From assembly GCA_964017965.1 (NCBI GenBank), contig CAXHNV010000004.1, positions 119,771-183,770 of the forward strand: 64,000 nt of DNA. The letters run 5' to 3'. Both the position numbers and the translations under genes were made by a program. The notes under the pieces are model-generated. The model searched no databases, was not told the origin of the DNA, and was given only the letters and a program-made list of their open reading frames with translations. This DNA comes from an uncultured Gastranaerophilales bacterium (lineage in GTDB: Bacteria > Cyanobacteriota > Vampirovibrionia > Gastranaerophilales > Gastranaerophilaceae). Each line of letters starts with the position of its first letter. The first letter of the stretch is position 1. Positions 1 to 43,031 of the stretch are shown in pieces.

Positions 1-1995
1 GGGTTTGAAAAAGATGTTGTTTTAAATGTTGCCCCAACAGCAAACAGAGGGGACGAATTCTCTGTAGTAGGTATCGCAAGAGAACTTTCAGCTATATTTG
101 AAAGACCGCTTAATTTCTCTTACCTTGAACCTACAAAGGACTTTTCTACAGATAGCTTTAAGGTAGAAATAAAAGATAATGACGTTTGTAAATACTATTC
201 TATCGGGGTTGTAAAAGACATCACTATCAAACAATCTCCTGATTGGATGCAAAAAAGATTACTCGCTTCAGGTATCCGCGCAATCAACAACGTAGTTGAT
301 ATTACAAACTACGTATTACTTGAATACGGGACACCTCTACACGCGTTTGATTACGATAAGCTAAACAACTATTTATGCGTAAGAAGAGCGAACGAAGGCG
401 AAAAAATCACAACACTTGATGAAGTTGAAAGAACTTGTACAACAGATACAGTCTTAATCTCAACAGAGACAGAAGGTGTTTGCGTAGGCGGAGTATTTGG
501 CGGTTATAACTCAGAAGTAACAGATAGTACCAAAAACCTTGCGCTTGAAGCAGCGTACTTTACACCATCTGCTATAAGAAAAAGTGCAAGAAGCATCGGC
601 TACCGCTCAGAAGCAAGCTCAAGATACGAACACGGTGTTGATATACAAGCTGTTGCACCAGGATTAAGAAGAGCTCTTCAATTATTAGTTGAATTCGCAG
701 ACGCAAAAATTGAAGGTATTGTTGAAACAGGCTCTTACGAAGTTGAACTTCCTGAAATAACATTGAGATACTCTCAAGTTAACAAAATCTTAGGCTGCAC
801 AATCGAAGCGTTCAAATGCCAAACAATCTTAGAACACTTGGGCTTTGAATACCTCGGCGGTAACGAGATTGCTGCAAAATTCAGAGTTCCGTCATTCAGA
901 GCAGCTGATGTAACAAGAGAAGTTGATTTAATTGAAGAAGTTGCAAGAATCTACGGTTACGATAAGATTGCTCCAACCCTTCCAAACAAAACAGCTACAC
1001 CTGTTATAACATTGGAAGAACGTACAAAAAACAAACTCCATGAAATAATGAGAGCTTACGGGCTGAATGAAATGGTAACATCTTCTTTAATAGGAAAACC
1101 GTTATTAAAACAGTTTGATATGAACTATGATGAAGAAAATGCTGTTTGTGTGGAAAACCCGGGCAGTGAAGAGTTCACAATGCTTCGTCAAACAATGGCT
1201 GCAAGTATGTTAAACTGCTTGAAATATAACTACGACAACGGTCAAAAAATATTCTGGGGTTATGAACTTGGAAAAACTTACATAAAAGAACGTGAAGCAA
1301 CAGAAAAAGATTCAGGGGTTAAAGAAACTCAGGTGCTTGCAGGTATAATAACAGGTGAAATAAACAATTCAATCTGGCAGCATTCTGCAAAAACTGATTT
1401 CTATACGGTTAAAGGATTAGTTGATAACCTATTGAATGAGCTCGGCGTTGCAAACAGAATCAAAGTTGCACCGATTAAAGAATCTCCTCTTGCAGATTCT
1501 CACAGAGCACTTCATCCTTATAGAACAGCCGTTCTTACATTGTTAGGTAAAACACCTCAAGTTATCGGTTATTATGGTCAGGTTAACCCTGAATTAAGAG
1601 ACAAGCTAAAGATTAAACAGGATATGTTCTTATTTAAACTTGATGTTGATGCTCTGGTTTCTGCTATTAACGAAAAAACCGTTCGTTATAAAAAATTAGC
1701 ACAATATCCGGAAGTTCAAAGAGATTTAGCTGTAATTATTCCAGATAAGGTTAGTTACGCAGAGCTTGAAAAAGTTATCCAAAAAGGTGTTCAAAACAAC
1801 CTATTCAAAGGCTGTGACGTATTCGACGTATATCAAGGTGAACACATTCAGGAAGGGTTCAAGAGCATAGCTTGCAGAATCAGAATGCAAGACGTTAACT
1901 CAACATTAACAGATGAAACTGTTGAAACCCAAATGGCTAATGTTAGAGCAGCACTGAAAAAAGCGTTCAATGAAGTTTCTTTCAGAGAGGGTTAA
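1..1995 (+). CDS. pheT: Phenylalanine--tRNA ligase beta subunit (5' end outside window)
   Basis: Frame 1 is open from base 1 (GFEKDVVLNVAPTANRGDEFSVVGIARELS...) and continuous with the listed 247..1995 ORF. NNVVDITNYVLLEYGTPLHAFD and the C-terminal FDVYQGE...RIRMQ pattern are typical of PheT. Confidence 0.9.
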   Translation, partial: GFEKDVVLNVAPTANRGDEFSVVGIARELSAIFERPLNFSYLEPTKDFSTDSFKVEIKDNDVCKYYSIGVVKDITIKQSPDWMQKRLLASGIRAINNVVDITNYVLLEYGTPLHAFDYDKLNNYLCVRRANEGEKITTLDEVERTCTTDTVLISTETEGVCVGGVFGGYNSEVTDSTKNLALEAAYFTPSAIRKSARSIGYRSEASSRYEHGVDIQAVAPGLRRALQLLVEFADAKIEGIVETGSYEVELPEITLRYSQVNKILGCTIEAFKCQTILEHLGFEYLGGNEIAAKFRVPSFRAADVTREVDLIEEVARIYGYDKIAPTLPNKTATPVITLEERTKNKLHEIMRAYGLNEMVTSSLIGKPLLKQFDMNYDEENAVCVENPGSEEFTMLRQTMAASMLNCLKYNYDNGQKIFWGYELGKTYIKEREATEKDSGVKETQVLAGIITGEINNSIWQHSAKTDFYTVKGLVDNLLNELGVANRIKVAPIKESPLADSHRALHPYRTAVLTLLGKTPQVIGYYGQVNPELRDKLKIKQDMFLFKLDVDALVSAINEKTVRYKKLAQYPEVQRDLAVIIPDKVSYAELEKVIQKGVQNNLFKGCDVFDVYQGEHIQEGFKSIACRIRMQDVNSTLTDETVETQMANVRAALKKAFNEVSFREG

Positions 1996-1997
1996 TC

Positions 1998-2639
1998 TTG
2001 ATTAGAAATATTCTGACAGCATTTGTTATAGTATTGGGGTTTGTGGGCATAAGTTTTGCAGATGTTATGCCGTTAGCTATGTCAGAGATTCCTGCTAAAT
2101 CAATCGGGGTTTATCAGGTTAGCAGCTCTAAGTTGACGGTTTACGATAAGCCAACTAATAACGCTAAGGTCGTTTACGAAGAAACTATCGATTATTCTCA
2201 CTACCTCGATAAGACAACCAGCCCTGTATTTTGCGTTATTCTGCCAAAGAAACAACTTAGTTATCTTTATGCAACAGACTGCTACGATGAATGGGTGGAA
2301 GTTATTTATAACAAAGCAAAGAATTCAATCGGCTGGGTAAAAAAAGACGATTTCTTCCAGTTTTTACCATGGGTAAATTTTTACGGAATGTACGGTAGAA
2401 AATATGGTTTAGTTGAACTCAAAACAGGTCAAAAATTCAACGGAACACTACATTCTCAACCCGATGAGAATTCTCAAATAGTCGCGAATGTTGTTAAACC
2501 TGTTAGAATACGTTTGACCTCAATAGAGGGTAACTGGGCGCTGGTTTCAATACTAGATATTACAGGAAGCGTTCATACAGGGTATCTGCAATGGCGAACT
2601 CAAGACGGTAAATATTTTGTTTTTCCGGAGTTTAAATAA
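1998..2639 (+). CDS. Hypothetical secreted/anchored protein with SH3b-like segments
   Basis: TTG start 2 nt after the pheT stop. Hydrophobic N-terminus (ILTAFVIVLGFVGISFA). GWVKKDDF and TGYLQW resemble bacterial SH3 repeats. Function unknown. Confidence 0.4.
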   Translation: MIRNILTAFVIVLGFVGISFADVMPLAMSEIPAKSIGVYQVSSSKLTVYDKPTNNAKVVYEETIDYSHYLDKTTSPVFCVILPKKQLSYLYATDCYDEWVEVIYNKAKNSIGWVKKDDFFQFLPWVNFYGMYGRKYGLVELKTGQKFNGTLHSQPDENSQIVANVVKPVRIRLTSIEGNWALVSILDITGSVHTGYLQWRTQDGKYFVFPEFK

Positions 2640-2641
2640 CG

Positions 2642-3334
2642 ATGTTTAAAGAGAAAGTTATCGATAGCGGCAAGGTGTTTTATTCTGATTTAATCCCTGA
2701 ACTAGAGCACTTTTTTACAACAAGAGAATCATCTTTAAATACAGAAAAAAACAAGAAACTAACAGCAAAATATTTAGGTATAGATGTTGATAGTTTAGTA
2801 GCTCCAAATCAGACACATAGTTCAAATGTTGCTGTTGCAAGATTAGGAATGAGCAATTACCCTGAAACAGACGCGTTGATTCTTACGAATAAAGAGCAGG
2901 CTGTATACTTACGGTTTGCAGACTGTGTTCCCGTTATTATTTATGACAAAAAACAGAATATCGCTGCAATATCTCATGCCGGCTGGAGAGGAACAGTAGC
3001 AAGAATAGTTCCTAAAACTATAGCAAAAATGCAATCTGATGTATCCGATATATATGTTATTATAGGCGCAGCCATAGGAAGCTGCTGTTATAGTGTCGGA
3101 GAAGAGGTTATTACAGGTATAAAAAACTCTGTTGAAGACTATTCCCGATTATTAAAAGACACCTTTGTTGATTTGAAACTTACAAATGCGCAACAGGCTA
3201 TTGAATTAGGTATTCCTGAGTCACAAATCGATATTTGTCCGTTTTGTACAAGCTGCAGGAACGATTTGTTTTATTCATATCGAAAAGAAAACGGCACAAC
3301 CAACCGACACAATGCCGTTATAAAATTAAAATAG
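2642..3334 (+). CDS. pgeF: YfiH/PgeF family laccase-domain protein (DUF152)
   Basis: Motifs NQTHSSNV, ADCVPV, HAGWRGT and CCYSVG, about 230 aa, match the YfiH/PgeF family. Confidence 0.8.
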   Translation: MFKEKVIDSGKVFYSDLIPELEHFFTTRESSLNTEKNKKLTAKYLGIDVDSLVAPNQTHSSNVAVARLGMSNYPETDALILTNKEQAVYLRFADCVPVIIYDKKQNIAAISHAGWRGTVARIVPKTIAKMQSDVSDIYVIIGAAIGSCCYSVGEEVITGIKNSVEDYSRLLKDTFVDLKLTNAQQAIELGIPESQIDICPFCTSCRNDLFYSYRKENGTTNRHNAVIKLK

Positions 3335-3399
3335 AGTATTAACTTTTGTAACAAAAATATATTAAGAAGTGTAACAATTTAGTCGAAAAACACCCGTTT

Positions 3400-3417
3400 T
3401 TTGTAAATTTTTGTAAC
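3400..3417 (-). promoter_or_regulatory. HLR1-like direct repeat (minus strand reads GTTACAAA-AA-TTTACAAA)
   Basis: Plus strand tt-TGTAAA-tttt-TGTAAC with 10-bp period. The reverse complement matches every defined position of (G/T)TTACA(T/A)(T/A)-NN-(G/T)TTACA(T/A)(T/A). Additional single TGTAAC boxes lie at 3347 and 3370. Confidence 0.5.
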
Positions 3418-3445
3418 GAATTTGGGGCAAAATACATATATTAAT

Positions 3446-3473
3446 TAAAGATTCTCATATAAAGAGCCGTAAA
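3446..3473 (+). promoter_or_regulatory. Sigma-28 (FliA)-type promoter candidate
   Basis: TAAAGATT (3446-3453), a 12-nt spacer, then GCCGTAAA (3466-3473). Enterobacterial consensus is TAAAGTTT-N11-GCCGATAA. It lies 57 nt upstream of the ATG at 3530. Confidence 0.5.
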
Positions 3474-3529
3474 CAAGAGTACCTAGGGAAATTATCGTAT
3501 TACGTAAAAAAGGGAAAAACGTTCGAACA

Positions 3530-6451
3530 ATGGGTATGTCATCATCACAAGCAAGACTGCTAACTTTAACGGCTCGTCTTCATAGCATCGAACATAAGGC
3601 TCAAAAGCTTGAAGCCGATAAGTTGCGCTTGGCTAATGATAGTGACAGAGTGTATGAAACCTACTTAGAGAGACTTGATGCAACTAAACTTCAGTACAGT
3701 GCTTTGACTGCAGACGGTACTATGACTTTCAAAGACGCAACTTTGAATGCTATGGAAAACGGTATTATTGGTAACTGGAACGGTGAAACTTCTAAGAACA
3801 TACTGTTCTTACAAAGTTTAGACGGTAAAGTACTTGTAACACCTGCTGTTGCTGCTAAATACGGTTTGGTTTCATCAGCAGATGAAACTCGTGACCTTGA
3901 TACTTTCGTTCACGATACAACAGGCAAAAACAAGACTGCAAGACCTGTTAACAAACAAGTTCCTGTATATCGTGATGAACAACACATGGTAGACAAAGTT
4001 GTTGATGATACTGACAAAGTACTTGACTTCACAAGAATCACTAACAAAGAAACTAAAGCACCTGTTAACGATGTACAACACACATACAATCCTGTAGCAA
4101 ACATCGATGGCGGTATCGATTACAGCGCATTAGAAGGTTATGCAAAATTCGACCCTTCACATAGCGCTTCAACAGCAGGAGCAACAGCCATAACTTCTTC
4201 TACAACAGAATTAACAGCTGGCGGAACATACACAGTAAATGATGCAGCCGGATTACAAAAATTAGCTCAATTAGCTAACGCAACAAACACTGCCGGTACA
4301 ACAATCATATTGGCTAACGATATCGATATGAGCGGTGTTACAGGCTGGAGCGGTATTTCAAACTTTGCAGGTACTTTTGACGGTAACGGTCACAAAATCA
4401 CTAACCTAACAGGTTCTCAAGGTTTATTCGCATCTACAAGCAATGCAACTATTAAAAACATCGGTTTAGAAAACATCAACATCAATGGTTCTTCTTATGT
4501 TGGTGGTTTAATTGGCAATTCAGGTACAAACACCAATATTACAAATTGTTATACAACAGGTACAGTAAAAGGTACCGGTAGCAATGTTGGTGGCTTGGTT
4601 GGCGCACATAACGGTAACGGACGTTTTGATAATGTATATTCAAGTGCTAATACAACAGGTTCTTCAAACGTTGGTGGCTTAATCGGATATATGCACTGTG
4701 GTCCGGGTTCTGTATTTGATTTATTAAACTGCTATGCAATTGGTAATGTTACCGGTACAACAAATGTTGGCGGATTAGCAGGTGATATGTATTACGATGA
4801 AGATTCTCGTAACACTGATATTACTGATATCGTTAACGCATATTCAGGCGGTAATGTATCAGGTACTGATAAAGTTGGTGGTTTTGTCGGTAATATTCTT
4901 TACTGGGGTGACGGCGGCGACTATTGTAAAATAATCAAATGTCAATCAACAGGTAAAGTAAACGGTACAAGCAATGTAGGTGCTTTTGCAGGTTCAATCA
5001 TTGTTAAATTAGATAGCGGCGCAGGTTGGGAATCTGATGATCAAAAATATGTTAACTTCATCGATTCAGGTTATGCAAACAACACAGGTGCATCATCACC
5101 TTATGGTTGTATCTATGATTCTGATGGTAATGACGTAACTCCTTTGGTTCAATCTACAGGTTCTACCGGTGGTCTTGTTTCATTCCAAATGGCAGGTTCT
5201 ATCCCTTCTATCAACTCTGACGGTTCAGGCGACTTTATGCAAAACATTATCGCAGCTTTAATTAAAGCAGGCGAATACGACCCTTGCGATCCTGAAGTTT
5301 CTGCAGCAGACAAAACAGCTATGGAAACAAAAGTTAAAAACTTCCTTAAATCATTCTCTGATAACGATGCAGACAACGCAAAATTATGGTACTTAAACAC
5401 CGCTATCAACGAATTCATTAACGGTACAGGCTCTGCAAACTTAGGTTCTGCTCTTGCTCAAGATATTAACAACGGTACAAAAACTGCTACAGCTGCGTTC
5501 CAAACAGGTGCAGCTCTAGACGGTAAAGTTGGCAGAGGCGTTGCTTCAGGTAACACTGTTCATTCAGGTACTCACAATATCCAAAAAGGTGAAATAGAAA
5601 TCCCTTCTGTTTCAAATATCGCAACATCATTATTCTATGCACTTAAAAAATCAGGCAACGAAGTTGCACAAGCTGATATCAATACCTGGATAGCTCAATA
5701 CAACACTTCTAATGCAACAGACAAACAATACCTTGCAAACCTAAACAACGATATTCAACAAGGTACTAATATGGCAGCAATCGCAGCATCAATCAATGCA
5801 GGTACTAAATATACAAACAACGCAATGTATGACACTAAAGACTATGATATTAAATTTGCTGCTAACCAAACAATCACTCCTACTTACGATAAGAAAACTA
5901 TTCAAGAATGGGACGGAACTTACGTTCAAGTATTTGATCACTACGATGAAGTATTTGACCACAACGAATACTTCTGGGACACAACTGACCCTGATATTGC
6001 TAATGCAATCGCTATGTATGCAATGATTAAACGCGGTGTAACAGTTGTTACAGATGAACAAGCTGCAAGCTATACATGGTTAGTAAATATGGTTAATGTT
6101 GGTGAAGCTGTATTCACAACTTTCAACCCTGAACAAGTTGCAGCATTTGCTAATATGTCAGAAGACGCTATTAACAATATGTCTGACGCTGAATACGAAG
6201 AATTTATGGGTATCAAAAACACATCAGTTTCAGTAGAAACTTTCATTATGGAAGTATCTGATGAAAAAGATTTGAAAAAAGCTGAAGCTCAATATGAAGC
6301 AGATATGTTGAAAATCAACAAAAAAGACAGATACTACGATACACAATTAGCTGCTATCGAAAATGAAAGAACAGCTATTATCGACGAAACTGAAACATTA
6401 AAAACTGTTATCAAAGATAACGTTGACAGAACATTCAAATTGTTCTCATAA
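3530..6451 (+). CDS. Large protein with conserved helical termini and GLUG-repeat core (flagellin-like architecture; family unknown)
   Basis: 973-aa ORF. N-terminal about 60 aa and C-terminal 58 aa are paralogous to ORF 14985..15905. No signal peptide or TM segment. The core is Gly/Asn/Thr-rich. Confidence 0.65.
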   Translation: MGMSSSQARLLTLTARLHSIEHKAQKLEADKLRLANDSDRVYETYLERLDATKLQYSALTADGTMTFKDATLNAMENGIIGNWNGETSKNILFLQSLDGKVLVTPAVAAKYGLVSSADETRDLDTFVHDTTGKNKTARPVNKQVPVYRDEQHMVDKVVDDTDKVLDFTRITNKETKAPVNDVQHTYNPVANIDGGIDYSALEGYAKFDPSHSASTAGATAITSSTTELTAGGTYTVNDAAGLQKLAQLANATNTAGTTIILANDIDMSGVTGWSGISNFAGTFDGNGHKITNLTGSQGLFASTSNATIKNIGLENININGSSYVGGLIGNSGTNTNITNCYTTGTVKGTGSNVGGLVGAHNGNGRFDNVYSSANTTGSSNVGGLIGYMHCGPGSVFDLLNCYAIGNVTGTTNVGGLAGDMYYDEDSRNTDITDIVNAYSGGNVSGTDKVGGFVGNILYWGDGGDYCKIIKCQSTGKVNGTSNVGAFAGSIIVKLDSGAGWESDDQKYVNFIDSGYANNTGASSPYGCIYDSDGNDVTPLVQSTGSTGGLVSFQMAGSIPSINSDGSGDFMQNIIAALIKAGEYDPCDPEVSAADKTAMETKVKNFLKSFSDNDADNAKLWYLNTAINEFINGTGSANLGSALAQDINNGTKTATAAFQTGAALDGKVGRGVASGNTVHSGTHNIQKGEIEIPSVSNIATSLFYALKKSGNEVAQADINTWIAQYNTSNATDKQYLANLNNDIQQGTNMAAIAASINAGTKYTNNAMYDTKDYDIKFAANQTITPTYDKKTIQEWDGTYVQVFDHYDEVFDHNEYFWDTTDPDIANAIAMYAMIKRGVTVVTDEQAASYTWLVNMVNVGEAVFTTFNPEQVAAFANMSEDAINNMSDAEYEEFMGIKNTSVSVETFIMEVSDEKDLKKAEAQYEADMLKINKKDRYYDTQLAAIENERTAIIDETETLKTVIKDNVDRTFKLFS
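4310..5010 (+). repeat. GLUG-type repeat module (protein level) inside the 973-aa ORF
   Basis: Six spaced copies of the G-G-[LF]-[IVA]-G motif (YVGGLIGN, NVGGLVGA, NVGGLIGY, NVGGLAGD, KVGGFVGN, NVGAFAGS). They are preceded by FAGTFDGNGHKITNL, as in GLUG-motif beta-helical surface proteins. Confidence 0.55.
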
Positions 6452-14858: not shown

Positions 14859-14876
14859 TATGTAAACAAATGTAAC
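14859..14876 (-). promoter_or_regulatory. HLR1-like direct repeat (minus strand reads GTTACATT-TG-TTTACATA)
   Basis: Plus strand ta-TGTAAA-caaa-TGTAAC with 10-bp period. Perfect match to the HLR1 consensus at all defined positions. Lies 17 nt upstream of the sigma-28-like -35 box. Confidence 0.5.
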
Positions 14877-14893: not shown

Positions 14894-14920
14894 TAAAGAT
14901 TTAAAAAAAGCTGCCGTCAT
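14894..14920 (+). promoter_or_regulatory. Sigma-28 (FliA)-type promoter candidate
   Basis: TAAAGATT (14894-14901), an 11-nt spacer, then GCCGTCAT (14913-14920). The -35 octamer is identical to the one at 3446. Lies 65 nt upstream of the ATG at 14985. Confidence 0.55.
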
Positions 14921-14984
14921 GCATGTGGTAAGGAATCACGAAGCAGATTAGGGGCTTCGTACAATAGGAAATAGGAGTAATACT

Positions 14985-15905
14985 ATGGGTTTAGCATCAT
15001 CACAAGCTAGATTACTTAATTTGACTACAAGAATGCACCAAATTGAGTACAAGGCAGCAAAATTAGAAGCTGAAAAGCTTCAAATGGCTAACGAATCACA
15101 ACAAGTTTATGAAACTTATTTAGAAGCGTTAGAAAAAACAAAAGTACAATACAAAGTTTTATCAACAGACGGCTCTGTAACTTATCGAGATATTCAACAT
15201 TATGAAGATTTCTTGAATGCAGGTTACGCACTAGACTTTAAAGGAACAGTTTATGACGGCTCATCCGGATTCAGAGCTGATCAAGGCACATTCACAAACA
15301 GAGGTACTGTAACCCCTACAGCAGAACAAGTAGCTGCAGGCGGCAAATACCAAGGTTTGACAGCCGGCACAACATACAATGTTTACAATGACGGTACAAC
15401 AGATTATTATTCAACAGCGGCTTTAACAGCAGGAGCATCAAAGACTCTTACTACAGTTCCTGCAGGCACAAAAACAATTAACAATGTAGTAGCAGTAACA
15501 TTTGATTATGCACAATTATGTGCTGATGCGTTTGATGCAGATCCTGCAAATCCGCCTGCAAATGTATATGAAGTTGTTACTAACTTGATTAATTCAGGCA
15601 GTGTAACCATTGTTCAAGCAAGAAAAGATGATTCATTCGCTATTGAAGTAGATCAAGACTTCAACATCTTTGAAACAAGTGTTGCAACAAATACAGGTTT
15701 ACAAGAAATACAAGACGCATCAGTCTTGAAGAAAGCTGAAGCTAAGTATGAAGCTGACATGAAACGAATTGATATGAAAGATAGAAAATTCGACCAAGAC
15801 TTAGCTGCTTTAGAAGCTGAACGTAACGCTATTAAACAAGAAATGGAAACATTGAAAACAGTGGCGAAAGAAAACGTAGAACGTACGTTCAAATTATTCA
15901 GTTAA
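14985..15905 (+). CDS. Short paralog of the conserved-termini (flagellin-like architecture) family
   Basis: 306 aa. MGLASSQARLLNLTTRMHQIEYKAAKLEAEKL... and ...ETLKTVAKENVERTFKLFS match the termini of ORF 3530..6451. AGGAG lies 7 nt before the ATG. Confidence 0.65.
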   Translation: MGLASSQARLLNLTTRMHQIEYKAAKLEAEKLQMANESQQVYETYLEALEKTKVQYKVLSTDGSVTYRDIQHYEDFLNAGYALDFKGTVYDGSSGFRADQGTFTNRGTVTPTAEQVAAGGKYQGLTAGTTYNVYNDGTTDYYSTAALTAGASKTLTTVPAGTKTINNVVAVTFDYAQLCADAFDADPANPPANVYEVVTNLINSGSVTIVQARKDDSFAIEVDQDFNIFETSVATNTGLQEIQDASVLKKAEAKYEADMKRIDMKDRKFDQDLAALEAERNAIKQEMETLKTVAKENVERTFKLFS

Positions 15906-15984: not shown

Positions 15985-16015
15985 GCCACTCTGTCCAAAC
16001 AAGTGGCTTTTTTTT
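15985..16015 (+). terminator. Rho-independent terminator
   Basis: GCCACT/AGTGGC stem with an 11-nt loop, followed by T8 (16008-16015). Confidence 0.7.
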
Positions 16016-17600: not shown

Positions 17601-17735
17601 GTCAATACCCACGTTGGCAGTATAATATTAAATTTTGTAACAAAATTCCTTAACAATGACAAATTCAAAAATTTAGGGTTATTAAATCAAATGTAGACGA
17701 ATGTCGACCAGAATAGTATTGAAAGGATAAAAACA

Positions 17736-17918
17736 ATGACAGCATCAGTTTCAGCTAACGTAGGACAACAACAAGCATGTGCACCGGTAATGCAACCGGA
17801 ATTCAAACCAAGTTACAACGCAGTTCAATTGAACTTAAGCCAACCTACATTGAATGTACCGCCAGCACCAATGCCAGCTCCAATGCCAGCAACTGCAACA
17901 CAACAATGGACAGCTTAG
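17736..17918 (+). CDS. Small Pro-rich protein, paralog of the N-terminus of ORF 18019..19023
   Basis: 60 aa. FKPSYNAVQLNLSQPTLNVP aligns with FAPSYNAVQINLDTPTLNAP of the next ORF. GAAAGGA lies upstream of the ATG. Confidence 0.4.
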   Translation: MTASVSANVGQQQACAPVMQPEFKPSYNAVQLNLSQPTLNVPPAPMPAPMPATATQQWTA

Positions 17919-17936
17919 TTTGTAACAGAATGTAAA
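17919..17936 (-). promoter_or_regulatory. HLR1-like direct repeat (minus strand reads TTTACATT-CT-GTTACAAA)
   Basis: Plus strand tt-TGTAAC-agaa-TGTAAA with 10-bp period. Perfect consensus match. Lies 82 nt upstream of the ATG at 18019. Confidence 0.45.
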
Positions 17937-18018: not shown

Positions 18019-19023
18019 ATGATTCAAAATACACCAAATTACCCTGCGCAACAGCCAGTTGCAAATGTAAATGGACAACAGGTACAACAAAGACCTTCAT
18101 TTGCACCAAGCTATAATGCGGTACAAATCAACTTAGATACACCGACATTAAATGCGCCGCAACCATCATATTATTATGATTATCCACAAGCACAAGGTCA
18201 ACCATATTATCCGCCTGTGCAAACCCAACCACAGCCACAGCCACAGCCTCAAGCACCTGTGAATGTACCTCAGCCACAAGCTGAACAACCACAACAACCA
18301 CAGGCACCTGCAGAAACAGCTCCTGCTCAAGCACCTGCTCCTGCAGAAACAGCTCCGGCAGCTAGCGCAGTGGATATGGAAAAAGTTTTAGCTAACTTGT
18401 CAGATCCTGATTTTGATAAACAAGCAATCCAAATGGAAGAAATTGCTAAAAAAGGTTTAACAAACGAAGCTGATGCAGTTCCTTATGTACAAGAAGACGC
18501 TTTCAAAAAATTATTTGATATAGTCAATGTAGATTCAACAAAATTAGCAGGTCCGACTGAACAACAATTACAATTACGTGAAAAAGTTGCTCAAAACGAT
18601 TTAGCAATCTATAACGCTCAACAAGCAGGCAAAGACCCTTCAACAGTTGAGTTACCAAACAAATTAACTGATGATGAAGTAGCACTTGCTAATACAATCA
18701 CACCGTTAGAACAAGCTGAAAGAAACAAAGAATACGCGTTATTCACAACAGCAGTTCTTCAAAAAACTTATGGCGATGAAATCGAAAAACGTTCAGGTAA
18801 CGTAGTTCCATTAACAGATTTACCTGGTGCTGCAGTAGTGGTTGATGAATTAAAAGAAAACCAAAACCCTGCAATTAGAATGGCAGCAGTAGACGCTTTG
18901 AGATATATTCAACGTCCTGAATACAAAAATGATTTAGCTCAAATCTACACAATCGCTCAATCAGATGCTGATGACAGTGTTGCAGCAGCAGCTACAGATG
19001 CGTTGAAAAGCCTTGAAGCTTAA
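18019..19023 (+). CDS. Pro/Gln-rich protein with C-terminal HEAT-like repeats
   Basis: N-terminal SYNAVQINL motif, then a long P/Q/A tract (QPQPQPQPQAP...). The C-terminus has NPAIRMAAVDALRYI and DDSVAAAATDALKSL, which resemble PBS-lyase-type HEAT repeats. Confidence 0.6.
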   Translation: MIQNTPNYPAQQPVANVNGQQVQQRPSFAPSYNAVQINLDTPTLNAPQPSYYYDYPQAQGQPYYPPVQTQPQPQPQPQAPVNVPQPQAEQPQQPQAPAETAPAQAPAPAETAPAASAVDMEKVLANLSDPDFDKQAIQMEEIAKKGLTNEADAVPYVQEDAFKKLFDIVNVDSTKLAGPTEQQLQLREKVAQNDLAIYNAQQAGKDPSTVELPNKLTDDEVALANTITPLEQAERNKEYALFTTAVLQKTYGDEIEKRSGNVVPLTDLPGAAVVVDELKENQNPAIRMAAVDALRYIQRPEYKNDLAQIYTIAQSDADDSVAAAATDALKSLEA

Positions 19024-24264: not shown

Positions 24265-24285
24265 TGTAAATGTAACAATTGTAAC
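24265..24285 (-). promoter_or_regulatory. Cluster of three TGTAA[AC] boxes (irregular spacing)
   Basis: TGTAAA-TGTAAC-aat-TGTAAC, about 100 nt upstream of ORF 24382. The 13-mer TTGTAACGAATTT is identical to 3411-3423. Confidence 0.3.
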
Positions 24286-24381
24286 GAATTTTATTCTCTC
24301 TGCAATTTTGCATAAAACATATCCTTTATATATACAGTAGAAAGAGTATATGATATTGAGCTGCAAAAAGGAGGATATCAA

Positions 24382-25251
24382 ATGAGTTTTGGTGAAATGT
24401 CAGTTACAGGAGCAAGTGCAGTAAACGGAGCGTATTCAGCTAACAGTACAACACGTAGTGTAAGTAGCGAAGAAGCTATGTTTGATTTTTCTGATAAAGG
24501 TGGTAACACTTCAGAAATAGCAAGCGACGGAGGAATGATTACAAGAAACCCTGATGGTTCTATAAAGAGTGTTACCTATGTAAATGAAGACGGAAGTGTT
24601 TATTCTAAGTCTGTATTTAACAGTAATACAGAAACAGTATATTATACAAATGATGAAGGCAAGTTGGCACCATTTGCAGAACACGTATATGATCCGGCAA
24701 CACAGACCGGAACAGCTACACCTTATGTAGACGGGAAGCTTGATACAAGTTATACATTGAAGTATCCAATGGATTATGATGAATCAGGCAAGCCATATTT
24801 AATAGATAAACCAATGCTGCCTGATGAACCGAAAGCAGCTGAACAGCCTTCAGCAACGCCTGCAGCACCAAAAGCATCTACGGTAACACCTTCAGAAGCT
24901 AACGCTAAGTGGGCAAATGTAAAATTTGAACAAGGTATCGGCGGCGGATATGGCAAAGAATATGACGGTTCCGGCAGGATTGCTAATAGAGTTTATACAG
25001 ATAGCGCAGGCAATGTGACTATGTATACAGAATATAGTTATAGACCTGACGGTAGCATAGATAAGACAAGAACTTATTCATTACATAACGGTGAATTCAA
25101 GTTATCTGATGAAGTTACTTATTCAGAAGATAATAAGACTGCCGTAGGACAAGGTTATTCCGTATATAGCGGTGAACCACATCCGGGTAAGATAAATTAT
25201 ACGACTGAAAAAGTCGGTAATGAACTACAACTGGTATTTAAAGCAGATTAG
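24382..25251 (+). CDS. Hypothetical protein with Tyr/Asp/Gly/Thr-rich repeats
   Basis: AGGAGGA RBS. Repeated segments like TYVNEDGSVYSKSVF / YYTNDEGK / YTDSAGNVTMYTEYSYRPDGS and a central Pro/Ala linker. No signal peptide. Confidence 0.4.
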   Translation: MSFGEMSVTGASAVNGAYSANSTTRSVSSEEAMFDFSDKGGNTSEIASDGGMITRNPDGSIKSVTYVNEDGSVYSKSVFNSNTETVYYTNDEGKLAPFAEHVYDPATQTGTATPYVDGKLDTSYTLKYPMDYDESGKPYLIDKPMLPDEPKAAEQPSATPAAPKASTVTPSEANAKWANVKFEQGIGGGYGKEYDGSGRIANRVYTDSAGNVTMYTEYSYRPDGSIDKTRTYSLHNGEFKLSDEVTYSEDNKTAVGQGYSVYSGEPHPGKINYTTEKVGNELQLVFKAD

Positions 25252-28591: not shown

Positions 28592-28906
28592 ATGAGCGAA
28601 AAAGAATCTTTTGTAATCATTATTGAGAAAAATACCATTACTAAATTACTTAAAATAATCTGCCCCGAAGATAATACGCTGATGAAGAATGAAAATCTTT
28701 CACCTAACGAACACATCCCACTCACAGAACGAGAACGCGAAATACTTAAACTAATAACACAAGGTAAAAATAATAACGAAATAGCGACCGCCCTTGAACT
28801 AAACATACATACAATTAAGTCTGATGTGTGTTCAATTCTTCAAAAACTCGAAGTCACAGACAGAGTTCAAGCTGCAGTCAAAGCCGTTAAACAAAACCTC
28901 GTCTAA
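28592..28906 (+). CDS. LuxR/GerE-type helix-turn-helix protein (solo, short N-terminus)
   Basis: LTEREREILKLITQGKNNNEIATALELNIHTIKSDVCSILQKLEVTDRVQAAV is a canonical GerE HTH. Only about 45 aa precede it. Confidence 0.75.
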   Translation: MSEKESFVIIIEKNTITKLLKIICPEDNTLMKNENLSPNEHIPLTEREREILKLITQGKNNNEIATALELNIHTIKSDVCSILQKLEVTDRVQAAVKAVKQNLV

Positions 28907-41129: not shown

Positions 41130-43031
41130 TTATAATTCAGCGTCCGTATTCAATATAGCGATAAATTCGCTTGCTATTTTGGCGTTCCATTTTTTATCAA
41201 TCTCGTTTTTGATAACTTCAAGCGCTTCTTCTTTCGTCATAGCCTGACGATATGGTCTTTGTTCTATAAGCGCAAAATAAGCATCTATAATCAACACTAT
41301 CTGAGAACACAATGGAATATTTTGACCTGAAGTATTATGCGGATAACCTGTTCCGTCCCAGTTTTCATGGTGATGTTCGATAATAGGAATAATATCGTGC
41401 ACCGCTGAAATCGGCTCCAAAATCTCTCTTGCAGCTATAACAGGATGTCGTTTAATAATATCCTTTTCTTCGTCCGTTAAAGGTGTACGTTTTTGTAATA
41501 AATCTTTCGGAAGCATTGTATTACCGATATCGTATAACAATATAGCAACCTTTAGATTATCAATATCCTCTTTTGACAATTCAAAACGTTTTGCAAGTAA
41601 ATTAGCTATCATAATCTTGTTCTTAGCTGAACCGTCTTTGTGGTTAGGGTTGTAAGTCGCAGACAACATATCCGATAACGTAAACAAGGTTTCTTTATCT
41701 TTATTAGGTGATTCGTCTTTCAATAAAGACTTCATCTCAAAGAGTTTGTCGTTATCAAACGGAATGTTTTTGTTTTTCAAAATTTCTTTCAATGACTTAA
41801 TAGCAACATCCTGCCAAGAATCAATAGTTTTAGGATTAGCGAGTGTAACTCTGTTTCTGCCGTTTTTCTTCGAAGTATACATCGCAAAATCGGTTAATTC
41901 CATAAGCTCTGTCAAGTTATCAGAATGCTCACCAAAAGTCGCAACCCCGATACTTGCAGTCACATTACCTATAACCTCTATTTGCACCTCTTCAATAGCT
42001 TTTCGGATTCTCTCAGCAGCTATCATACCGCCCTGATGATCAACACCCGGTAAAAGTATATTAAACTCTTCTCCGCCCATTCTCGCAGCTATATCGATAG
42101 AACGTGCGTTGGTCTTAATAACATCTGCAACCGTCTTAATCGCAATATCACCGCAAGAGTGACCGAATTTGTCGTTTATCTGTTTCAAATGGTCTAAATC
42201 AAGCCCGATAATAGTAAACTTCTGACCCTGACGAGCAGATCTTAACATCTCTTTTTGAGCTTCTTCTTCAAAATATCTTCTGTTATTCAAACCAGTCAAA
42301 CTATCCGTAATAGCTTGTTCTTTAACAGTTTGGAACAAGTTCGCAATAGTAATCGCAAGCTCAATCTGTTTTGCAAACAGTTCTAAAAACGTTATTTCTG
42401 CTTCCTGCGCATCAGCTCTTGATGACAACACAACAAGAGAGCCAAAATGAGTACCGTTACTTTTTAGAGGAATAAGAATATATGATGAAATATTAGCATC
42501 CTGACAAATTTCCTGTACAGCTTCTTTGCCAACATCACGCAAAGTCGATTCTATTACGGAACGAACTTCTTTACTCTGATATATCTTATTACTTTCAATG
42601 TGTTCTTCTACATCCTGTAAACAACTCCAATACAATCTTAAATCGTATATAGATTTACCGGAATGTTTCAGAATATCCTCTGCAAACTGACACTTTGAAT
42701 CAGCCAGCAACTCCAAATATGTACCGTCGTTATCAACTTTTTTCTGCAAAATACAGCTATATAAATAACCGAGTTCACCCTGCAAACTATTTACAATGGA
42801 ATACAAAACATTAGATAACGGCTGGGAAGAGTTCATCATTTCCCAAATATGCTGTACCGTAACAAGTCTCTGATTGGCAAGTTGTAATTCTTCCGTACGT
42901 TCTTTAATTTCTGCTTCTAACTGAATATTTTTTTCATATACTTCGTAAAAATCCTTACGCGTAGCATAAATAGAGTTTTCAACATCATTAAGTTTATTTT
43001 TATATTCGCTAATCTTGTCCCAGAAACCCAT
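41130..43031 (-). CDS. Diguanylate cyclase (coiled coil-GAF-GGDEF) fused to a degenerate HD-GYP domain
   Basis: RSIDIAARMGGEEF (I-site RxxD plus GGEEF). The C-terminus has HHENWDGTGYP, but the HD dyad position reads LLYDIGN. Confidence 0.8.
   Translation of the reverse strand: MGFWDKISEYKNKLNDVENSIYATRKDFYEVYEKNIQLEAEIKERTEELQLANQRLVTVQHIWEMMNSSQPLSNVLYSIVNSLQGELGYLYSCILQKKVDNDGTYLELLADSKCQFAEDILKHSGKSIYDLRLYWSCLQDVEEHIESNKIYQSKEVRSVIESTLRDVGKEAVQEICQDANISSYILIPLKSNGTHFGSLVVLSSRADAQEAEITFLELFAKQIELAITIANLFQTVKEQAITDSLTGLNNRRYFEEEAQKEMLRSARQGQKFTIIGLDLDHLKQINDKFGHSCGDIAIKTVADVIKTNARSIDIAARMGGEEFNILLPGVDHQGGMIAAERIRKAIEEVQIEVIGNVTASIGVATFGEHSDNLTELMELTDFAMYTSKKNGRNRVTLANPKTIDSWQDVAIKSLKEILKNKNIPFDNDKLFEMKSLLKDESPNKDKETLFTLSDMLSATYNPNHKDGSAKNKIMIANLLAKRFELSKEDIDNLKVAILLYDIGNTMLPKDLLQKRTPLTDEEKDIIKRHPVIAAREILEPISAVHDIIPIIEHHHENWDGTGYPHNTSGQNIPLCSQIVLIIDAYFALIEQRPYRQAMTKEEALEVIKNEIDKKWNAKIASEFIAILNTDAEL

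Follow-up and report, generated by a model that had tools for sequence, protein, structure and literature searches.

A sigma-28-like promoter element with a CGT −10 core and its association with a hypervariable protein family of Gastranaerophilales

In a 64,000-nucleotide (nt) stretch of DNA from an uncultured Gastranaerophilales bacterium (contig CAXHNV010000004.1; the whole stretch is referred to as the window), two paralogous genes are preceded by nearly the same pair of octamers, which a preliminary description of this DNA had taken for near-consensus promoters of the sigma-28 (FliA) type. The locus raises the question of whether these octamers are promoters at all and, if so, which class of sigma factor would read them and for which genes. 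Candidatus Gastranaerophilales is an order of non-photosynthetic Melainabacteria, relatives of cyanobacteria. Its members are widespread gut bacteria with no cultured representative reported, and no promoter or regulon of the order is described in the literature that we searched. On the basis of the present results, we consider it fairly probable (roughly 60%) that both sites are promoters of a sigma-28-type (FliA/SigD/WhiG) alternative sigma factor, in a lineage-specific variant that is dedicated to a large Gastranaerophilales protein family.

Promoter elements and their conservation

The boxes, which were located by reading of the sequence and motif alignment, and the two genes (protein lengths in amino acids, aa) are as follows:

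14894–14901, + strand: −35 element TAAAGATT of the gene for the 306-aa family member
14913–14920, + strand: −10 element GCCGTCAT of the same gene, 11-nt spacer from the −35 box
14985–15905, + strand: gene for the 306-aa family member (helix 2–51, beta-rich variable middle, helix 245–305)
3446–3453, + strand: −35 element TAAAGATT of the gene for the 973-aa family member
3466–3473, + strand: −10 element GCCGTAAA of the same gene, 12-nt spacer from the −35 box
3530–6451, + strand: gene for the 973-aa family member (conserved termini, large inserted middle with GLUG / Peptidase_M26_N-like repeats)

The shared −35 octamer and the spacing of 11 or 12 nt, as originally described, were confirmed at both loci. 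The −10 box is separated from the ATG by 64 nt at the first gene (between 14920 and 14985) and by 56 nt at the second (between 3473 and 3530). Within the window, the pattern TAAAGATT-N11-12-GCCGT matched only these two sites, and it was absent from 100 dinucleotide-preserving shuffles. The loose form TAAA-N14-16-GCCG was present at chance level (6 observed, 5.06 expected), and the significance therefore rests on the full octamers. Scored with a matrix of the family promoters, the two sites reached 26.0 bits (14894–14920) and 24.1 bits (3446–3473); the best scores of random 250-nt stretches, used as the null, have a 95th percentile of 6.8 bits. A competing sigma-70-like promoter was looked for in both intergenic regions, and none was present.

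Conservation was measured in a sample for which one genome per species was scanned, giving 75 loci (1.08 Mb) from 24 related assemblies. Together with the window, these loci contain 78 starts of family genes, 74 of which are preceded by 150 nt or more of DNA and form the basis of the motif counts reported here. The motif TAAAG(T/A)TT-N11/12-G(C/T)CGT(C/A)A(T/A) was found upstream of all 74 genes, in 24 assemblies, always on the coding strand and 27–116 nt 5′ of the ATG, with a spacer of 11 nt (46 sites) or 12 nt (28 sites) and no other length. T1, A2 and A3 of the −35 box were invariant, A4 and G5 were present in 73 of 74 promoters, as was TAAAG as a whole, and the majority octamer was TAAAGTTT. 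C3, G4 and T5 of the −10 box were likewise invariant (74 of 74), followed in frequency by G1 (63 of 74) and C2 (57 of 74), and many promoters carried a conserved gCATG right after the box. The spacer was 82% A+T without sequence conservation, and the information content was near zero outside the boxes; even between paralogs of 36–45% protein identity, spacers and flanks had diverged and the boxes had been kept.

A matrix scan of both strands of the loci and the window (1.15 Mb) returned 81 matches of at least 14 bits, 73 of which were located at family promoters (71 of the family promoters counted above and two more cut by contig ends). From base composition, we estimate that about 3% of 200-nt regions would match the relaxed regular expression by chance. 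A chance likeness to sigma-28 promoters, here between the consensus and two A/T-rich intergenic stretches, had been judged unlikely in the preliminary description and is refuted by our data. The chance-level count of the loose pattern and the 35% G+C of the genome speak for such a likeness; the absence of the strict pattern from all 100 shuffles, the motif at 74 of 74 promoters and its near-exclusive occurrence in the matrix scan leave it virtually no probability. Comparative sequence evidence supports the reading of both window sites as real, selected promoter elements.

Alternatively, what the genes share upstream might be no promoter but either an operator for a transcription factor or a passive remnant of duplication. 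Some upstream similarity is indeed expected in a family that arose by duplication, and the HLR1-type repeat next to the boxes (see below) shows that regulator sites exist there. We regard this explanation as improbable. Only two 8-nt boxes at a fixed spacing of 11 or 12 nt have been kept between paralogs of less than 45% identity, the spacer and flanks having diverged; the constant position on the coding strand ahead of the ATG and the lack of any other promoter-like element in the intergenic regions also argue for a promoter, as does the presence of the same element before flgK in unrelated bacteria.

Comparison with sigma-28 and ECF promoters

The sigma-28 consensus is TAAAGTTT-N11-GCCGATAA in Escherichia coli and TAAA-N15-GCCGATAT in Bacillus subtilis. 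The majority −35 octamer of the family, TAAAGTTT, agrees with the E. coli consensus at 8 of 8 positions, and the form present in the window, TAAAGATT, is the −35 element of the FliA-dependent flxA promoter of E. coli. The 11–12-nt spacer, the GCCG at the start of the −10 box, the A at its seventh position and the C that precedes the −35 box (giving CTAAAG) are further features in common, and the E. coli FliA sites in a list from chromatin immunoprecipitation sequencing share the geometry TAAAGxxx-N11-GCCG. The −10 core is different: all 74 family promoters have T at position 5, giving CGT, whereas nearly all E. coli FliA sites have CGA, and position 6 is C or A instead of the T of the sigma-28 consensus. 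Two more differences concern the setting, namely a sampled regulon made up of one uncharacterised gene family and not of genes for flagellin, the motor or chemotaxis, and a phased HLR1 box upstream of the family promoters. Near-consensus sigma-28 character, as first proposed, was therefore upheld for the −35 octamer and the spacer and had to be given up for the −10 core; because this core is CGT instead of CGA, we file the element as a sigma-28 variant and not as a canonical member of the class. As part of a sigma-28-like promoter, the invariant CGT offers a natural example of a −10 specificity that has changed.

Promoters of extracytoplasmic function (ECF) sigma factors usually have CGT as their −10 core. 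The family promoters might accordingly be read by some other alternative sigma factor, either of the ECF type (group 4) or a lineage-specific group-3 factor that is not a FliA ortholog, an explanation that we consider unlikely and yet worth serious attention. In addition to the invariant core, the geometry TAAAG-N16-CGT equals the AAC-N16-17-CGT geometry of ECF promoters, with ~16 nt between the −35 core and CGT. In the sampled DNA, the motif also keeps to one family, canonical flagellin genes and one motA operon being without it, and ~75% of Gastranaerophilales genomes are without complete flagella. On the other hand, the −35 box TAAAG(T/A)TT is without the AAC of ECF promoters and in its majority form TAAAGTTT fits sigma-28 throughout, GCCG stands ahead of the core as in sigma-28 promoters, and on these features the element falls outside the ECF class. 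No ECF sigma/anti-sigma gene pair was found near the family genes of the related loci. Moreover, flagellated relatives show synteny between family genes and flagellar genes, and in other bacteria the identical 16 specified bases precede flgK, which belongs to the classical late flagellar genes.

The latter observation came from a scan of metagenome contigs for exact matches to TAAAGTTT-N11-12-GCCGTCAT, which gave at least 120 matches, most of those listed looking random. In at least five contigs (L096, L131, L141, L152 and L159), TAAAGTTT-N11-GCCGTCAT lies 29–35 nt 5′ of flgK, in intergenic DNA that has otherwise diverged, though L141 and L152 are near-identical. The identity of FlgK was established with the Pfam domain FlgK_D1 in L141 (4e-83) and L096 (3e-76), and the other three proteins share the N-terminal sequence. 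As this string precedes genuine flgK, the CGT variant stands in these other bacteria at the place of a late-flagellar promoter. The contigs with the string before flgK are environmental and have 41–52% G+C. The two sites with a confirmed domain are:

L096, 864–890: string before flgK
L141, 7216–7242: string before flgK

The same scan also met three family-type genes that were cut off or too divergent for the N-terminal pattern: a distant N-terminal relative in L194 (hhalign 76%) and genes cut by contig ends in L145 and L133. Separately, a Melainabacteria contig (L067, minus strand, 1809; ~4382–4408) carries a canonical TAAAGTTT-N11-GCCGATAT located 28 nt 5′ of an orphan open reading frame (ORF) of 137 aa (3913–4323), for which we found no homolog in the sample and no match to the family.

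According to published surveys, a full set of flagellar genes is present in about one fourth of Gastranaerophilales genomes, and the remaining ones keep only FlhA, FlhB, FliP, FliR, FliI, FliJ, FliE and FlgB/C/F/G (PMC4040986 and its supplement; bioRxiv 10.64898/2026.04.24.720558). Family genes are found next to flagellar genes in several of the sampled loci: the gene order is flagellin, flagellin, family gene, sepF, yggS, flgE, flgD, fliK in L038 and motA, motB, fliL, fliM, fliN, family gene in L032, and flgE lies ~2 kb from a family gene in L023 and L024 too. We infer that a FliA ortholog would read the family promoters. The other candidate of the preliminary description, SigF as in the cyanobacterial lineage, found no support, and the reported promoter elements of cyanobacterial SigF look different from the family motif.

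Several observations weigh against a sigma-28-type promoter. First, phmmer detected no sigma-70-family gene in the window, the 75 related loci (1.08 Mb) or five fliI loci. The targets were all ORFs of the window and of the fetched Gastranaerophilales loci, and the queries comprised E. coli FliA, B. subtilis SigD and the RpoD C-terminus, along with CsrA of E. coli and B. subtilis and FliW of B. subtilis. A search of ~40 window ORFs against Pfam and NCBIfam also revealed no sigma or flagellar gene, and there was no mention of fliA or a sigma factor in Melainabacteria in the literature and supplements searched. Second, the family has CGT where the −10 consensus GCCGATAA has its CGA core. Third, the canonical flagellin genes of L038 and L022 are without the motif (best matrix scores −2.9, 9.3 and −4.1), as is motA of L032 (−4.9 bits), and motA of L045 has a marginal TAAAGTTT-N11-TTCGTTCG of 7.1 bits, at about the 95th percentile of the null. 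The family genes merely adjoin flagellar genes, and the motif does not appear to drive late flagellar, motor or chemotaxis genes. Fourth, the transcription start sites are predicted only, and the 74 sites are not independent, many of them coming from orthologs. The preliminary description had proposed a genome scan for the motif in front of flagellar, chemotaxis or pilus genes; in the 1.15 Mb scanned here, 73 of 81 matches lie at one family, and canonical flagellins and one of two motA operons are without the motif.

The two flagellin genes of L038 instead have extended −10 promoters (TGcTATAAT and TGtTATAAT) located ~40–45 nt 3′ of a TGTAAC box. In these two genes and in the L022 flagellin gene, the leader forms a hairpin, GTAA-AGGA-TTAC, with GAAAGGAG behind it, an arrangement similar to a CsrA-type site. 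The upstream regions are:

L038, 7700–7915: flagellin upstream region
L038, 8775–8935: flagellin upstream region
L022, 12990–13085: flagellin upstream region

The protein family, its transcription units and a putative RpaB site

The two window proteins are paralogs with similar ends (62% identity in the N-terminal 69 residues, 57% in the C-terminal 86) and unrelated middles. The 306-aa protein has 707 database relatives, none of which has a Pfam domain, and all informative organism names among them are Candidatus Gastranaerophilales. An exhaustive profile search extended the family to 2,571 clusters at 50% identity, of which 1,377 had E ≤ 1e-10. Members are ~220–1,289 aa long, and the long ones match the profile at both ends only. 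The N-terminus, MGLSSSQARLLNLT.RMHQIEYKAAKLEA.KLQMANES, and the C-terminus, KKAEAKYEADMKKID.KDRKYD.DLAALE.ERNAIKQEMETLKTVAK.NVERTFKLFS, are nearly invariant. In the AlphaFold2 model of the 306-aa protein (mean predicted local distance difference test score of 82), they correspond to long terminal helices (2–51 and 245–305). Searches of Pfam, NCBIfam and PDB sequences gave no match for the family, a signal peptide is lacking, and a Foldseek search against PDB gave no significant fold match (best E-value 0.07). Several copies are present per genome, with at least five to six in HUM_9, UBA7753 and CANNUY01. The promoter element delimits a regulon made up of this very large, hypervariable, unannotated and surface-protein-like family, whose organisation is flagellin-like.

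The similarity to flagellins and other flagellar axial proteins, the usual products of genes with sigma-28 promoters, lies in this organisation: conserved terminal helices around a hypervariable, insertion-tolerant middle, several paralogs per genome, monocistronic genes, a structured GGA-rich leader and no signal peptide. The architecture is different, as the family has one long helix at each end in place of a D0/D1 bundle. Homology to flagellin was rejected, there being no Flagellin_N or Flagellin_C match and a probability of 0.1% in hhalign against an alignment of two Gastranaerophilales flagellins and B. subtilis Hag. Two database labels point to other phyla. A contig labelled uncultured Treponema sp. 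(L052, 1–327) encodes the family C-terminus with 72% identity, and one FliI cluster is named Spirochaetes bacterium; both are likely to be mis-binned Gastranaerophilales contigs.

Downstream of the promoter, the following elements belong to the gene for the 306-aa protein:

14921–14984, + strand: discriminator and 5′ leader, with a predicted transcription start near 14926–14929
14940–14958, + strand: leader hairpin with loop AGATTAGGG (RNAfold)
14974–14977, + strand: Shine-Dalgarno sequence GGAG
15985–16015, + strand: intrinsic terminator (GCCACT, 11-nt loop, AGTGGC, T8), read by eye, with a loop of more than 8 nt

The terminator had been missed by a scanner limited to loops of up to 8 nt; because of it, the gene appears to be monocistronic. 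As there is no competing promoter and a terminator follows, family genes in general look like their own transcription units, the 3′ end having been read at the 14985 gene only. A hairpin with a G-rich loop, (GA)TTAGGG or GGGG, was predicted in 28 of 75 leaders by single-sequence RNAfold (L001–L018, L019–L033, L041, L055 and L065), its stems being formed by at least nine different complementary sequences, and GGA occurs in the family leaders at about twice the expected frequency. A consensus fold of the leaders (MAFFT and RNAalifold) showed no structure, the loop lengths being different. GGA-loop leaders of flagellin mRNAs are bound by CsrA, and the family leaders resemble such leaders. CsrA itself was not found in the window or the Gastranaerophilales loci by phmmer, and FliW gave one insignificant match (E = 0.03).

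Upstream of the −35 box, both window promoters carry a repeat of the HLR1 type. In cyanobacteria-related work, HLR1 is described as two imperfect 8-nt direct repeats, (G/T)TTACA(T/A)(T/A), located 2 nt apart and bound by the OmpR-type regulator RpaB, which activates from HLR1 centres at −66 to −45 and represses from −38 to +23 (PMC6525291). Three zero-mismatch matches are present in the window:

14859–14876, − strand: HLR1-type repeat GTTACATT-TG-TTTACATA, putative RpaB site, ending 17 nt 5′ of the −35 box
3400–3417, − strand: HLR1-type repeat GTTACAAA-AA-TTTACAAA, putative RpaB site, ending 28 nt 5′ of the −35 box
17919–17936, − strand: third HLR1 match, preceding a Q/P-rich 334-aa ORF (18019–19023)

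A similar repeat pattern has three window matches against 0.05 expected by chance. HLR1 reads on the strand opposite to the genes, the gene-strand form being TTGTAAa-N3-TTGTAAC upstream of the −35 box, and the repeat at 3400–3417 sits one helical turn further from its −35 box than that at 14859–14876. At least one TGTAA(A/C/G) box was present in 69 of 74 family promoters and the relaxed repeat in 63 of 74. The proximal box lies 17 nt from TAAAG in 47 promoters, 18 nt in 7 and 27–28 nt in 12, spacings that would keep the box on one face of the helix. If transcription starts, as predicted, ~7 nt past the −10 box, the centre of HLR1 would be at about −60 for the 14985 gene and about −71 for the 3530 gene.

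A candidate regulator is encoded in the lineage: a Gastranaerophilales metagenome-assembled genome contains an RpaB equivalog (L035:18332–19123) that scored 360.8 bits against the NF045944 cutoff of 330. Homologs of RpaA, RpaB and NblS of unknown role in Melainabacteria have been reported before (Di Rienzi et al., PMC3787301). We infer that RpaB would activate the family promoters. The repeat structure and the RpaB equivalog are shared with cyanobacterial RpaB-activated promoters such as those of photosystem I genes and isiA (PMC6525291), and the predicted centre at about −60 would lie within their activator zone. Unlike cyanobacterial RpaB targets, the family promoters belong to a non-photosynthetic host and have a sigma-28-like core, the repeat lies opposite the gene strand, and one subclass has it a helical turn further upstream. 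Known RpaB targets have ordinary sigma-70-type promoters.

On the sigma-28-type reading, each family gene would be a self-contained unit of HLR1 repeat, −35 and −10 boxes, leader, ORF and terminator (the last read at the 14985 gene). The promoter would have the consensus (C)TAAAG(T/A)TT, an A/T-rich spacer of 11 or 12 nt and G(C/T)CGT(C/A)A(T/A). RpaB bound 17 or ~28 nt from the −35 box, with a centre at about −60 or −71, would act from the zone of RpaB activation, and transcription is predicted to start 5–9 nt after the −10 box and to continue through a GGA-rich leader, the ATG lying 27–116 nt beyond the boxes. The combination of HLR1 box, sigma-28-like −35 and CGT −10 provides a high-confidence promoter model for the order.

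What the family does may be connected with the flagellar remnants of these bacteria. Most gut Gastranaerophilales retain a relic apparatus of FlhA, FlhB, FliP, FliR, FliI, FliJ and rod proteins, without hook, flagellin or motor (PMC4040986; bioRxiv 10.64898/2026.04.24.720558). Tentatively, and with considerable doubt, the family might represent secreted or filament substrates of this relic flagellar type III export apparatus, expressed as a late class by a retained, CGT-shifted FliA and tuned by the NblS/RpaB two-component system. If true, the relic flagellar genes and the RpaB of Melainabacteria would each gain a function. Two questions become testable with the promoter model: why most genomes keep only the export gate, ATPase and rod (PMC4040986; bioRxiv 10.64898/2026.04.24.720558), and what role RpaB/NblS has in a non-photosynthetic lineage (PMC3787301).

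The export ATPase gene itself is located near family genes in some assemblies. Across the 120 best database relatives of FliI, which include one named HUM_9, identity is 87–100%, and in HUM_9-type contigs (L196–L198) a lone fliI has a large family paralog on either side, all within 17 kb:

L196–L198, 204–2099, 10001–11347 and 14655–17204: fliI flanked by family paralogs

These contigs contain a block of pheT, an SH3-domain gene, pgeF and a family gene that matches window positions 247–6451. Because of this match, fliI is probably located a few kb past the left end of the window.

Neighbouring genes and minor observations

The G+C content of the window is 32–38%, around the 35% of the genome, and Pfam and NCBIfam identified housekeeping genes such as pheT, dnaB, a formate/nitrite transporter gene and an Hsp20-family gene. 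The exact protein sequences of two window genes had no database record.

A weaker third promoter candidate had been proposed in front of a Pro-rich ORF of 60 aa (17736–17918), consisting of TAAA at 17683–17686, 16 nt and GTCGACCA at 17703–17710. We rejected it as a promoter of this type for two reasons: the ortholog L011 keeps TAAA but has TTTCAAAT in place of the −10 box, and the best family-matrix score in the 250 nt upstream of this ORF was −2.5 bits, at another position. The 60-aa ORF itself has a conserved counterpart in L011, with 83% identity over 41 aa, and shares the sequence PSYNAVQ(L/I)NL with the N-terminus of the 334-aa ORF at 18019–19023.

Strict HLR1 repeats were found 58 times in the loci and the window: 45 precede family genes, two belong to family promoters at contig ends, and 11 lie elsewhere, before other genes (mostly small uncharacterised ORFs) or with no called ORF. 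Several of the HLR1-like repeats outside the family have a CTTTATATA(T/A)ACA-like element ~40 nt downstream, and several of the proteins encoded next to such sites share a PSYNAVQ(L/I)NL or MGIYD motif. Judging from these sequences, there may be a second promoter class, composed of an HLR1-like repeat and CTTTATATA(T/A)ACA and located before small hypothetical proteins. The candidate sites are:

L032, − strand, 1101: candidate second-class site
L035, − strand, 5710: candidate second-class site
L037, 12237: candidate second-class site
L055, 13720: candidate second-class site
L072, 5445: candidate second-class site
Window, 24265–24340: candidate second-class site

At the window site, an irregular triple TGTAA(A/C) repeat (24265–24287) stands before an ORF at 24382–25251.

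Two further window genes encode possible regulators. A GAF-GGDEF-HD-GYP protein (41130–43031, − strand) suggests turnover of cyclic-di-GMP, and a stand-alone protein of 104 aa (28592–28906, + strand) has a helix-turn-helix of the GerE/LuxR type; either of them could be a regulator of surface structures.

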